From Akkermansia muciniphila (GTDB lineage Bacteria > Verrucomicrobiota > Verrucomicrobiia > Verrucomicrobiales > Akkermansiaceae), in contig CAMAYN010000001.1 in assembly GCA_945862285.1 (NCBI GenBank), positions 1 to 61,990 on the forward strand: a stretch of 61,990 nt of DNA, read 5' to 3'. Both the position numbers and the translations under genes were made by a program. The notes beneath the pieces were generated by a model. It saw nothing but the letters and a program-made list of their open reading frames with translations, was not told where the DNA came from and made no database searches. Of the stretch, positions 12,461 to 15,376 are shown one piece after another. Each line of letters opens with the position of its first letter. Positions within the stretch are counted from its first letter, which is position 1.

Positions 12461-15376
12461 TCAATCATCAATCATTTCCATGAGCGATGGCTCATCAAGG
12501 ATCGCGACACCGAGGGCTGCTGCTTTGTCGCGCTTGCTGCCGCCGCCTTCGCCGCAGAGGAGAAAACTGGTGCTGGCGGAAATACTGCCGCTGACTTTGC
12601 CGCCGTTTTTCTCGATGAGTTCTTTAAATTCATCGCGCGGCTTGCTTAAGGTGCCGGTGATGACGAAGGTTTTGCCACTGAGAATGCCAGATGCCACGCC
12701 ATCGGCGGGGAGGGGACGGTAGTTTTCGGATGAGGGATTCAGACCGTAGTGAGCGAGCTTCTCAAGGACGTCGATGCCAGCTTTTGACTCAAAAAAGCTG
12801 AGCATACTGGTGGCGACAGTGGTGGCGATATCGCCGGAGATGCGATAGGGCAGCAGTAGAGGGTTGCGCTTTTTGGCATCGGCACGGGTATCAGTGAGAA
12901 GTTCCCGCAGGATTTCGGATGCGGCTAAGGCGGGAAAGTCTTTATGCAGGCGGGAGAGTTCTTTGGCGGCTCCTTCGCCGACGTTTCGAATGCCCATGGC
13001 AAAGATCCAGCGGTGGAGAGGTTTTTGGCGGGCGGATTGTAGGGAGTCGATGATTTTTGCGGCATTTTTTTCGCCAAAGCGTCGCGGTTCATCATCGGTG
13101 CCGAGATTGAGCGGGGCGAGTTGCTCGAGCGTGAGTGAAAATAAGTCGAGCGGGGTGCGGCATAGTTCATCGCGTACGAGGGCAAGGGCTACACTTTCGC
13201 CGAGCGAGGTGATATCAAGCGCCTTGCGCGAGGCGAAGTGAGTGATGCGGGTGACAGCTTGAGCAGGACACTGGAAATTCGTGCAACGCCAGGCGACGAA
13301 GCCGTCTTCTTGCGAGATGGGACTGCCGCACGACGGGCAACAGCCGCCTACGGCATCGAAAATCGAATAGGGCGGGCTGCTTTCGTTATGAGAGATAACT
13401 TTGACGATGGAGGGAATGATTTCACCGGCTTTTTCGATGAGGACGCGGCTGCCGATGCGGATATCTTTTTTGGTGATTTCATCTTGGTTATGGAGGGTGG
13501 CACGGGAAACGATAGTACCGGAAACGAGAACAGGTTCCAATTCGGCAACGGGAGTGAGGACTCCCGTTCTACCGACTTGAATGGTGATATTGAGGAGTGT
13601 GGTTTCTTTTTGCTCGGGGAGGAATTTGTAAGCACAGGCCCAGCGCGGGGCGCGGGAGGTAAAGCCTAGGGTTTCGCGTTCGGAGCGATCCCAAACCTTG
13701 ACGACGGTACCATCGGTGCCGTAGGGGAGTTGGTGGCGCTGCATGCTGAGATCGGCAATGGCGGCGCGGAGTTCATCGAGGTTTTCGGCGATGTGGATGG
13801 GTTGGTTGCGCGGTATGCCGCAGGCATCAAGCAGGGCGTGGAATTCGGATTCGTTGGCGAGCGATGGGCCATCGTAGAGGCCGAGGCCGTGAGCGAGGAA
13901 GGCGAGCGGACGTTGGGCGACGACTTTTGGGTCGAGTTGCTTGAGGGTGCCAGCAGTAGCGTTACGCGGGTTGGCGAAGGTGGCGAGGCCTTGTTCATCG
14001 CGCTCGGCATTCATGGCGGCGAAGGCATCATTCGGCATGAAAATTTCGCCGCGGACTTCAAGGCTTGCGGGTGTTTGGATTTGTGGGACGGTTGGGTTTT
14101 GACCTTCACTGAGGACTTGGAGGTCGATGGGGATCAGTTCGCCATCAGCGGATTTAATGAGGTTTCCGGTATGAGCGTCGGCGATTTCGATGCCTGTGTC
14201 GGGATGGAGCCAGCGGTTGTGGCCGCTGGAGATGTAGCCTTGGTTGGTGAACCAGTCGGCGACTTCTTCCAGAGTCGGTTCGGTGCCATCGACGTAAGGC
14301 TGGGAAATGACAAAAGCGGGGCCTTGCTCGGTGAGGAAGATTCCGTGGAACCAGATGTCATCGCCGAAGAGGCGGTTGCAGGCGTCGATGTTTTGGAGAT
14401 AGCGAACGCTGCCTTGTGCGCCAAAATTAGGGGGGAGGGTGAACTTTATCACTCGCTCCCATTTTTCGACAAGGAAAACGGTGTGTTCGGACTGACCTCC
14501 GAGCTTTATCCAGTCTTTTGTGAGGCGAGTAATTTCCTGAAGGTTGAGGAGTCGACGAGCGTGAGTTCCCCATTCAAGAATGGATTCGGCTTCACGTCGG
14601 ATCCGTTGCGCCACATTGTCTCCATCTTTTCCTGCGGATTCTTCTTGAAGCCTTCGAGCCAGGCTTTGTGCCGTGCCTTGCGAAGGTATTCGGACGAGAG
14701 TGGCGTTTTTGGTGGTGGATTCATGGGTGGATTCATAGGGTAGGATGTTTTCTAGTTCAAGTTTGGTGGCGTTCGTGGGAGTGAAAAGAATTTCTTGCGG
14801 AAATTTTGATGGGTTGGCTTGGCGGATGGAATCCGCCGCCACGGTGAGCTTGAGAGGGACGCTGCGGATGGTGCGGACGTTTTGGGTGATGTCGTCGCCG
14901 GTGGTACCATCGCCACGGGTGGCGGCGTAGAGGAGTTCGCCGTTACGATAGAGCAGAGATACGGCGACACCATCGATTTTTGGCTCGATGGTGACGCGGA
15001 TGTTTTCGCGCCCTAGGGATTTTTGCAGGCGTTTGTAGAAGGCGATGAGTTCGGCATCGGGCACGTCGGTGTCTTTGAGTTCAAAAACGTCATCGATGCT
15101 GAGCATGGGTACGGCATGGGTGATTTGCGTAAAGCCATCAAGCGGAGCACCGCCTACGCGCTGGGTGGGGGAGTTAGGATCGTGGAGATGCGGGTATTTT
15201 TTTTCTAACTCTTCGAGTTCGCGGTAGAGGCGGTCGTAATCGGCATCGGAGATTTCTGGGGTGGCTTTTTGGTAATAGAGATCGTTGTGGCGAGACAGTT
15301 CGGCGCGCAGGTGTGTGATGCGTGCTTGTTCATCTGCGGCTGGATTTTGATTAGCAAAGGAAAAAAGGTCATCCAT
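12461..15376 (-). CDS. ligA: NAD-dependent DNA ligase LigA, unusually long (971 aa) because of a ~260-aa in-frame insertion in the adenylation domain
   Basis: All LigA modules are present: Ia ([13 protein letters not shown]), KxDG ([10 protein letters not shown]), [11 protein letters not shown] fold, Zn finger (CPSCGSPI...CTNFQCPAQ), HhH region and BRCT ([33 protein letters not shown]). The extra segment lies between SVPLKL (aa ~177) and SLEVRGE (aa ~438), i.e. nt ~14066..14845. Confidence 0.95.

Follow-up and report, generated by a model that had tools for sequence, protein, structure and literature searches.

The window analysed here, the whole 61,990-nt stretch of Akkermansia muciniphila contig CAMAYN010000001.1 (assembly GCA_945862285.1), contains a ligA gene that forms a single uninterrupted open reading frame of 971 amino acids plus stop and carries a protein-kinase module within the NTase domain of the ligase. 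LigA is essential, serves as an antibiotic target and is regarded as having an invariant architecture. The gene is surrounded by housekeeping chromosomal genes rather than by defence islands, no second ligA lies within the 62-kb window, and Rfam reported nothing in the window. The features of the gene, in the order of the encoded protein, are as follows.

12461-15376, minus strand: ligA open reading frame, encoding domain Ia, NTase, OB, Zn finger, HhH and BRCT, with the kinase module in the NTase domain
14846-15376, minus strand: LigA aa 1-177, domain Ia and the N-terminal NTase half, with motif I K133 (14978-14980)
14765-14845, minus strand: N-terminal linker of the insert, aa 178-204, disordered and poorly conserved
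14720-14764, minus strand: conserved "LPY" motif segment, aa 205-219
14528-14674, minus strand: helical N-terminal extension of the module, aa 235-283
14105-14527, minus strand: Kinase-PolyVal catalytic core, aa 284-424, without C-lobe
14444-14446, 14177-14179, 14162-14164 and 14123-14125, minus strand: codons of core residues K311, D400, N405 and D418, respectively
14066-14104, minus strand: C-terminal linker, aa 425-437, variable and disordered
14078-14797, minus strand: 720-nt segment, aa 194-433, that is absent from the ligA of the relative L091/P0171
12461-14065, minus strand: LigA aa 438-971, the NTase remainder from motif III (E444, 14045-14047), OB, Zn finger, HhH and BRCT

The initial annotation described a LigA of 971 residues with all canonical modules intact and no stop or frameshift, and this description holds. 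Pfam families follow one another along the protein in the order PF22745, PF01653 (in two stretches), PF03120, PF03119, PF12826 and PF00533, giving the complete canonical succession of domain Ia, NTase, OB, C4 Zn finger, HhH and BRCT, and the protein exceeds the cutoffs of the NCBIfam LigA equivalog NF005932 (727 bits, cutoff 369) and of TIGR00575 (679 bits, cutoff 444). K133 (in EPKIDG) aligns with K115 of the E. coli enzyme, the motif I lysine (KxDG), and E444 (in LEVRGE) aligns with E173, the motif III glutamate, which is kept in 67/67 orthologues. Outside the module, dN/dS of LigA is about 0.1 (0.09-0.12). At the level of sequence, the gene thus described encodes a chromosomal, intact NAD+-dependent DNA ligase, which would be expected to seal nicks as usual. 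This LigA also has a further small clade-specific insert just before its last HhH. A second LPY-like motif occurs in the HhH region at aa 840-849; its Y844 is kept in 56/67 orthologues, and because this residue is only moderately conserved we take the motif to be a probable coincidence.

When the protein is aligned by phmmer to the E. coli LigA chain (PDB 2OWO), query residues 18-177 match chain residues 6-159 and query residues 435-969 match chain residues 164-669. Between L159 and I164 the E. coli enzyme has four residues (HGEN), whereas the window LigA has 257 (aa 178-434), which confirms the in-frame insert of about 260 residues that had been placed in the adenylation domain. The insertion point is a surface loop of the NTase domain, just before motif III, flanked by the strand that ends in ...PLKL and by the LEVRGE strand of motif III; window positions 14066-14845 correspond to LigA aa 178-437. 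As had also been noted, the insert resembles flanking ligA in composition (GC of 0.53 versus 0.55 and 0.57). Its first ~25 and last ~12 residues are disordered linkers, and the first 16 residues of the N-terminal linker are still present in a relative that lacks the module. Disorder, which had been named as a possible refutation, is found in the linkers, but the stretch between them is a single module, modelled by AF2 with a pLDDT of 82.8, a pTM of 0.78 and a core above 90. The LPY segment, in which Y214 is Tyr in 63/67 orthologues, is ordered in the deeper AF2 model (pLDDT about 79) and recurs in stand-alone modules. It is followed by the helical N-terminal extension, with R258, R260, E262, S265 and W269 invariant, which is common to all stand-alone and NspC-inserted modules, and then by the catalytic core, whose landmarks are the glycine loop GGQSEH (E297), the beta-3 lysine K311, Q359, the catalytic D400, N405 and the DFG-position D418.

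Our analysis identifies the insert as a complete Kinase-PolyVal module of ~230 residues, built into LigA in-frame and composed of the LPY motif, two or three helices and an N-lobe with catalytic loop. The insert alone scores 45.6 bits with PF18762 (gathering cutoff 27, E 1e-11), the match spanning profile positions 23-153 of 160, and this is the only family that Pfam reports for it at E<=1; PHROGs and the NCBIfam profiles gave nothing. In Foldseek searches of the PDB every top match is a protein kinase, the top 50 being eukaryotic-type protein kinases and pseudokinases, and BFVD returned, as its top matches, a large polyvalent protein of a phage (E 7e-14) and a "PolyVal Ser/Thr/Tyr kinase" (E 6e-8). 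A kinase-like fold had been proposed from motifs that are all present in the insert, and the assignments of the glycine-rich loop, K311, D400/N405 and D418 proved sound, these residues being invariant in 67/67 orthologues. The kinase had been confined to the second half of the insert; the kinase itself stands, but the first half consists of the N-terminal extension of the family together with a linker. The suggested kinship to APH, Kdo or RIO-type kinases does not survive, since none of these families matches even at E<=1 and the Foldseek top 50 are others. A polynucleotide 5'-kinase of the Pnkp type was likewise rejected (protein-kinase-like fold, no P-loop family match), as was an intein, there being no Hint or intein Pfam match at E<=1, no splice-junction residues and no endonuclease; the insert junctions, TVAAD... 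and ...QTPA/S, fall in linkers of about 30 % identity.

Kinase-PolyVal was described from the giant, multidomain polyvalent proteins that (pro)phages and conjugative elements encode, and from stand-alone genes, with an insert between a conserved His and the catalytic Asp and with a signature Glu and Gln (Iyer et al. 2017, PMC5512222). The signature Glu, N-terminal to strand 2, is E297 in GGQSEH and the signature Gln, in the last N-lobe strand, is Q359 in ISQPY, both present in 67/67 orthologues. By pattern only, the conserved His may be assigned to H386 (GHNRW), 14 residues before D400, which is His in 62/67 orthologues and Tyr in 5/67. The helix between beta-3 and beta-4 shows no evident canonical alpha-C glutamate. 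The module stops ~8 residues past the DFG-position Asp, the AF2 model has no helices beyond that point, and stand-alone homologues stop at the same place. We found no biochemical study of any member of this family in the literature; from the retained residues, the LigA module is apparently active as a kinase, its activity and class of substrate both being predictions.

The insert was found colinear and in one reading frame in the ligA of 78/80 related species genomes (Luteolibacter/Akkermansiaceae MAGs, GTDB loci), and a full-length query search returned >118 protein clusters of 950-1020 aa with the module in LigA; the combination is kept in more than 100 related species. The survey of architectures rests on an exhaustive representative search and on this full-length-query search; an insert-only search gave 12 proteins and a module-profile search 18 (word-indexed), mostly fragments. 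Nine active-site or signature residues of the kinase, E262, G294, E297, K311, Q359, D400, H402, N405 and D418, show no variation in 67/67 orthologues, and median omega is 0.18 in the folded module and 0.43 in the linker. The module has been inherited throughout a large clade of Luteolibacter/Akkermansiaceae, purifying selection having kept all ATP-binding and phosphotransfer residues. Pairwise identities of insert and flanks correlate poorly (Spearman 0.31), and we make no claim of mobility from this, because other pairs of LigA regions correlate equally low (0.23-0.60). Frame changes were seen in a few fragments or assemblies (P0002, P0010, L010 and L015). A split gene or programmed frameshifting was considered and dropped, given the 78/80 loci that are colinear in one frame.

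Conservation coexists with loss. In the syntenic relative L091/P0171, ligA lacks exactly 720 nt (240 codons) of the module at 93-95 % nucleotide identity, and this clean in-frame loss in a near-conspecific relative indicates that LigA can do without the module. The ligA of L001/L089/L090 has been replaced by a kinase-less ligA, the module is partly deleted in P0006 and truncated in L001, and from such losses in close relatives we conclude that its function is not needed for viability. Full synteny with the window was found in L091 only, and none of the 80 GTDB loci shares synteny with the window neighbours. A neighbourhood survey found no conserved partner gene and no phosphatase, FHA or other phospho-signalling partner linked to ligA. 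PADLOC defence profiles matched neither the module nor its stand-alone homologues nor the NspC-kinase; their sole match was a BRCT-level similarity of LigA to PDC-S48.

The same module occurs well beyond LigA. Small stand-alone Kinase-PolyVal proteins are found in PVC bacteria, and stand-alone homologues of ~225 aa match the insert over its full length, LPY motif and helices included. In at least 7 sequences (P0045, P0047, P0055, L092-L095) the module sits in-frame within NspC, the carboxynorspermidine decarboxylase; an Opp-type ATPase is fused to it, and it also occurs inside giant polyvalent proteins with MuF/ART/LPD37/Zeta-toxin. Searches of phage and plasmid collections by tblastn were negative, and so was a pattern scan of IMG/VR. 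Its presence in NspC, taken together with its clean loss in a close relative, makes its role look generic and accessory, not one inherent in ligation, and the specific coupling to repair that the initial annotation had envisaged is not supported, on the same grounds.

The reading that we consider reasonably probable is that a phage-derived kinase was domesticated and tethered to LigA, where it acts in cis or on nearby targets in an accessory function. The module would then be a lobe that is catalytically active, works autonomously and hangs on flexible tethers, and because the substrate-docking C-lobe is absent, its specificity probably comes from the tethering. Candidate targets are LigA itself, the tail of the module that bears the LPY motif, or proteins that LigA encounters at nicks and replication forks. 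Phosphorylation would bring in a layer of control that is conditional and accessory, not a step in the chemistry of ligation, and this layer may plausibly have been inherited from phage-host conflict.

Other explanations deserve to be weighed against a domesticated, tethered kinase. The embedded kinase might still serve conflict directly, as a switch or guard that alters or shuts off its host enzyme upon infection or another signal, or as a decoy for phage effectors. The home of the family among conflict proteins of phages and conjugative elements is consistent with such a role, as are the independent insertions in two enzymes whose products phages need and the patchy loss or replacement in close relatives of a module that is yet conserved where present, a pattern typical of accessory or defence traits. 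However, PADLOC provided no match, the ligA loci are set among housekeeping genes and not in defence islands, no partner that might act as sensor or effector is apparent and the idea is inferential throughout, and we regard it as unlikely. A kinase that phosphorylates 5'-OH DNA ends or a nucleotide cofactor beside the ligase site would couple end healing to joining. Ligases are often paired with end-healing enzymes, T4 Pnkp and LigD being precedents, and within the NTase domain motif III follows immediately on the insert, but an activity on DNA ends is hard to reconcile with the same module in NspC, a PLP decarboxylase that has no DNA substrate, and with modules that stand alone. The fold and the closest relatives are those of protein kinases, not of P-loop polynucleotide kinases, the long flexible linkers speak against a fixed shared active site, and a close relative does without the module, all of which renders end healing very improbable.

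It could also be argued that the module is a passenger, a neutral or selfish in-frame insertion, akin to an intein or a remnant in decay, that LigA tolerates to no benefit of the host, or the scaffold of an inactive pseudokinase. The site is a tolerant surface loop, the module lies between disordered linkers, it has been inserted in other genes too, and it can be deleted cleanly (the 720 nt) or in part, or be truncated. Against this stand the catalytic residues, invariant in all orthologues, and the low omega of the module; a neutral passenger is disfavoured because such conservation is not expected over the divergence of the flanks, which are 62-74 % identical to those of the window among the orthologues compared. 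Selfish spread finds no vehicle in a Hint/intein domain, conserved splice-junction residues or an endonuclease, all of which are absent, and no mechanism is known that would let a kinase drive its own spread. A passenger appears improbable. An assembly artefact or a pseudogene copy of ligA, to which the scattered frame changes might point, is effectively refuted: these changes are confined to a few assemblies and the window frame is uninterrupted, the same architecture recurs in independent genomes and protein clusters, and purifying selection acts on all parts of the gene.

A domesticated kinase tethered to LigA also admits a broader and more tentative proposal, possible rather than likely, in which Kinase-PolyVal is a plug-in of phage origin that has repeatedly been built in-frame into core enzymes of PVC bacteria, phosphorylating its tether partner and so acting as a switch. 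The cases to be considered are loops or ends of LigA, NspC and the Opp-type ATPase. If this were true, enzymes that phages need, for DNA joining and for polyamine supply, would be switchable, the switch being kept where it is useful and deleted elsewhere, and nested-kinase insertion would count as a means, not recognised before, by which housekeeping enzymes are regulated or weaponised. The insertions in LigA and NspC do hint that a C-lobe-less kinase tethered inside its target enzyme is a recurrent device of PVC bacteria. What makes the LigA case unusual is that an apparently active protein kinase, of a family known only from predictions on phage polyvalent proteins, has been nested long-term in the catalytic domain of LigA. 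In the literature searched we found no paper linking LigA with a kinase of the Kinase-PolyVal type, and should the kinase control the ligase or mark proteins at nicks, a new phosphorylation link to bacterial DNA replication and repair or to phage defence would follow. As a soluble, tractable and single-copy protein, LigA offers a setting in which the biochemistry of this family could be started, and the window LigA and the 720-nt deletion allele form a natural pair with and without the module on flanks that are 93-95 % identical.

In comparison with known systems, the window LigA shares with canonical LigA (E. coli, PDB 2OWO) its identical domain order, the motif I Lys, the motif III Glu and an equivalog-level match, and departs from it in having 257 residues where E. 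coli has four, as well as the small clade-specific insert ahead of the last HhH. Its insert resembles Kinase-PolyVal as described (PMC5512222) in its score above the gathering cutoff, in lacking the whole C-lobe while keeping the ATP-binding and phosphotransfer residues, in a phyletic home in the Verrucomicrobia/PVC group and in having phage polyvalent proteins as its best structural matches; it differs in being an in-frame loop insertion inside a chromosomal essential enzyme among housekeeping genes, although such context is a habit of the family and no defining trait of the domain, and that study makes no mention of LigA. The closest parallel is the NspC-inserted module, 30-36 % identical, with an LPY-like Tyr, the helices and a C-lobe-less kinase, and likewise an in-frame loop insertion in a PVC housekeeping enzyme with intact ORFs, although host enzyme and lineage differ, the insertion is independent, and the catalytic loop reads DARPxN as opposed to DAHxGN in LigA. 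T7 gp0.7, cited as a functional precedent for the kinases of polyvalent proteins (Iyer et al. 2017, PMC5512222), is similarly a phage-derived Ser/Thr kinase that modifies host proteins, but it has no detectable specific sequence relationship to the module and exists as a free protein of the phage instead of forming part of a host enzyme. Inteins and homing-endonuclease insertions are also large, autonomous, in-frame insertions at a conserved site of an essential DNA enzyme that can be lost precisely; the window insert has no Hint fold, splice-junction residues or endonuclease, its junctions are variable linkers, and unlike an intein it stays in the mature protein. T4 Pnkp with its ligase and LigD (ligase-polymerase-phosphoesterase) join a ligase to a second catalytic activity as well, but there the second enzyme is a P-loop kinase, a phosphatase or a polymerase, works on DNA ends and is fused end to end, whereas in the window LigA a domain of protein-kinase fold is nested inside the NTase domain.

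Our findings show that LigA is intact and contains a complete Kinase-PolyVal module, held by flexible tethers in a loop just before motif III and possessing a conserved active site. The window LigA is a LigA equivalog in NCBIfam (727 bits vs a cutoff of 369). In Pfam all LigA domains are present in canonical order, with the adenylation domain recognized as two stretches and one additional family, PF18762 (Kinase-PolyVal), between them at aa 284-418; with the insert alone as query this family scores 45.6 bits vs a gathering cutoff of 27. When the window protein is aligned to E. 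coli LigA (2owo), the alignment stops at query residue 177 (chain 159) and restarts at 435 (chain 164), thus placing 257 residues where E. coli has four. Two essential residues of the E. coli enzyme, K115 in motif I and E173 in motif III, have K133 and E444 as their counterparts. The GC content of the insert is 0.53 vs 0.55 and 0.57 in its flanks, and neither a second ligA nor a second kinase module was found within the window. The parts of the protein are as follows.

Architecture of the window ligA and its insert
12461..15376, minus strand: ligA ORF, 971 aa, uninterrupted
aa 178-204: N-terminal linker, disordered
aa 205-219: LPY segment, a conserved motif, ordered in the deeper AF2 model, pLDDT about 79
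aa 220-234: low-confidence stretch
aa 235-286: three helices
to about aa 424: kinase core, N-lobe with catalytic and Mg-binding strands, pLDDT above 90
13 residues: C-terminal linker, with no kinase C-lobe ahead of it

The AF2 model of the insert reached a pLDDT of 82.8 and a pTM of 0.78 with a 28-sequence alignment, and a pLDDT of 67.7 with a 10-sequence alignment. Foldseek against the PDB returned protein kinases and pseudokinases only (CK2alpha, MLKL, Csk, PknB, MEK1), with probabilities about 1, E 3e-4 to 4e-3 and low TM-scores, and no close solved structure. The strongest match among viral predicted structures (E 7e-14) was a protein of an uncultured phage annotated as "large polyvalent protein associated domain", and another top match (E 6e-8) was a "PolyVal Ser/Thr/Tyr kinase". 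The insertion described in the initial annotation at 14066-14845, which is exactly aa 178-437, is confirmed and its kinase-like reading is supported, though the family resemblance proposed there, to APH/Kdo/RIO-type kinases, is not supported and gives way to the PF18762 profile match.

Further features lie in or beside this gene. A clade-specific segment at 12830-12895 (LigA aa 828-849), before the last HhH and missing from E. coli LigA, contains a second "LPY" whose Y844 is kept in 56/67 orthologues; this is probably a coincidence. A 337-aa ORF at 13730-14743 on the plus strand, antisense to the kinase-coding part of ligA, is treated as a by-product of GC-rich coding sequence. The spacer directly upstream of ligA, between its start at 15376 and an RND transporter gene (16171-19338), contains a tandem repeat at 15796-16143 made of 8.3 copies of a 42-bp unit (90 % matches), on which an 84-bp period is superimposed. 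No tandem repeat was found at the equivalent intergenic position of L091, the locus of a close relative.

The insert in LigA is real and widespread. Two conserved kinase peptides were used to scan GTDB, each species being represented by a single genome, and gave 113 confirmed matches. All come from MAGs of Verrucomicrobiota with labels such as Luteolibacter, Akkermansiaceae or Haloferula. Of the 80 loci fetched, 78 have the N-part of LigA, the insert and the C-part of LigA in colinear order within one reading frame, the remaining two having frame changes of the sort typical of error-prone assemblies, and motif I, kinase and motif III share one open frame in 71 loci. A full-length protein search yielded >118 clusters of 950-1020 aa with the identical Pfam set, annotated at source as just "DNA ligase (NAD+)" or "LigA". 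Across an alignment of 67 full-length sequences, G294, E297, K311, E262, Q359, D400, H402, N405 and D418 are invariant, and 63/67 have Tyr at position 214, in the LPY motif. The folded module averages 62 % pairwise identity, compared with 69-78 % for the LigA parts and about 30 % for the linkers; median omega (Nei-Gojobori, 11 close pairs) is 0.18 for the module, 0.09-0.12 for the LigA parts and 0.43 for the N-linker region. Purifying selection therefore keeps the module, with a strength close to that seen for the ligase, and it acts on the catalytic residues. As a separate observation, dS varies several-fold among ligA segments within one species pair (L013/L020, L039/L065, L041/L050), for example 0.03-0.05 in the module vs 0.38-0.47 in the flanks, and the identities of different LigA regions are poorly correlated across species (Spearman 0.23-0.60); together these hint at mosaic recombination in ligA of this clade.

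The module can also be lost. P0171 (731 aa), the syntenic orthologue in a near-conspecific genome (L091), shares with the window the neighbouring TPR/GT41, 297-aa, 675-aa and aldehyde-dehydrogenase genes, and its flanks are 94.6 % and 92.6 % identical in nucleotides to the window ligA. It lacks exactly 720 nt, corresponding to window 14078-14797 (aa 194-433), with a 3-nt "CAA" microhomology at the deletion. Because it retains 16 residues at the start of the N-linker and the final residues of the C-linker, this is a recent in-frame deletion and not ancestral absence. In another lineage, represented by three loci, ligA is cut off inside the kinase glycine loop and is followed by a 220-aa BRCT ORF and a complete kinase-less ligA.

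Conserved three-gene arrangement
L001: 5001-9140
L089: 5001-9080
L090: 2853-6932

The truncated remnant (320-344 aa) has an omega of about 0.2 between L001 and L089, and the kinase-less ligA has a different insert of ~60 aa after SIDDLFE. Identity between these two loci is only 61 % for the full ligA, 79 % for the remnant and 89 % for the 220-aa ORF. In another homologue, P0006, the N-terminal half of the module is gone. LigA therefore works without the module, which is dispensable and behaves as an accessory trait.

Searching 1.84 billion representative proteins exhaustively with HMMER gave 618 matches to the module, in four groups.

Groups of module-bearing proteins
Group 1: LigA insertions
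Group 2: stand-alone proteins, about 210-260 aa long, sharing 40-50 % identity with the insert
Group 3: giant proteins of 1.5-6.3 kaa, with the kinase alongside other domains
Group 4 (unexpected): in-frame insertions or fusions in further housekeeping enzymes

The LPY-type Tyr and helices are found in the stand-alone homologues too, so the insert of LigA corresponds to one whole free-standing protein; the stand-alone genes lie in ordinary chromosomal neighbourhoods. At L086 8001-9805 (GCA_007992435.1), a 226-aa stand-alone module gene overlaps the start of a Dak1 gene by 4 nt, suggesting that its translation is coupled to that of an unrelated metabolic enzyme (a dihydroxyacetone kinase subunit). 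The giant proteins, with MuF_C, ART-PolyVal, LPD37, ddrB-ParB, Zeta toxin, PBECR3 or InPase as partner domains, are bona fide polyvalent proteins. In the fourth group, the module of carboxynorspermidine decarboxylase (NspC) falls between positions 254 and 257 of the profile, in frame between ...EPGEA..LNTGYL...D.VG and.PT.ILD.SA..HMPD. P0047 scores 473 bits on TIGR01047 vs a cutoff of 409, and the insertion recurs in P0045, in P0055 and at another four metagenomic loci, the ORFs being intact and about 620-640 aa long.

NspC-module loci, PVC-type bacteria
P0047/L082-L084
P0045
P0055
L092-L095 (e.g. L092 2951-4993)

In NspC, a second housekeeping enzyme, the module was inserted independently. 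A further fusion is known from a single 1.1-kb metagenomic contig (P0155, L088 3-1106), in which an Opp-type ABC ATPase, represented by its C-terminal part with an oligo_HPY domain, ends in the module.

The module is probably an active kinase that, having lost the substrate-docking C-lobe, would gain specificity through tethering; predicted targets are its own LPY tail, LigA, or proteins encountered by LigA at nicks. That the module recurs in NspC favors a generic logic in which a tethered kinase controls its host enzyme, and counts against ligation-specific chemistry such as 5'-end phosphorylation and hence against the repair coupling suggested in the initial annotation. A conflict-related role is plausible in view of the phage-conflict ancestry and patchy loss, but searches for a defence-system profile match to the module or a conserved neighbour gene pointing to such a role returned none.

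Both components are of known kinds, LigA and the Kinase-PolyVal domain, and the nested architecture is already visible in precomputed Pfam annotations. Our literature search found no paper linking the two, and LigA is not mentioned in the description of the kinase family (Iyer et al. 2017, PMC5512222). What is new is the nested architecture and its conservation across the clade under selection, together with the parallel insertion in NspC and the natural deletion allele. According to Iyer et al. 2017 (PMC5512222), the family has its home in polyvalent proteins of phages and prophages from Verrucomicrobia-Chlamydia and Bacteroidetes, and is characterized by loss of the C-terminal subdomain with retention of active-site residues, by a Glu ahead of strand 2 and a Gln in the final strand of the N-lobe, and by an insert separating the conserved His and Asp. 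The LigA insert fits this description with its GGQSEH and ISQPY, and its GHNRW...IADAH, with a candidate for the conserved His assigned by pattern, is consistent with the His-Asp feature.
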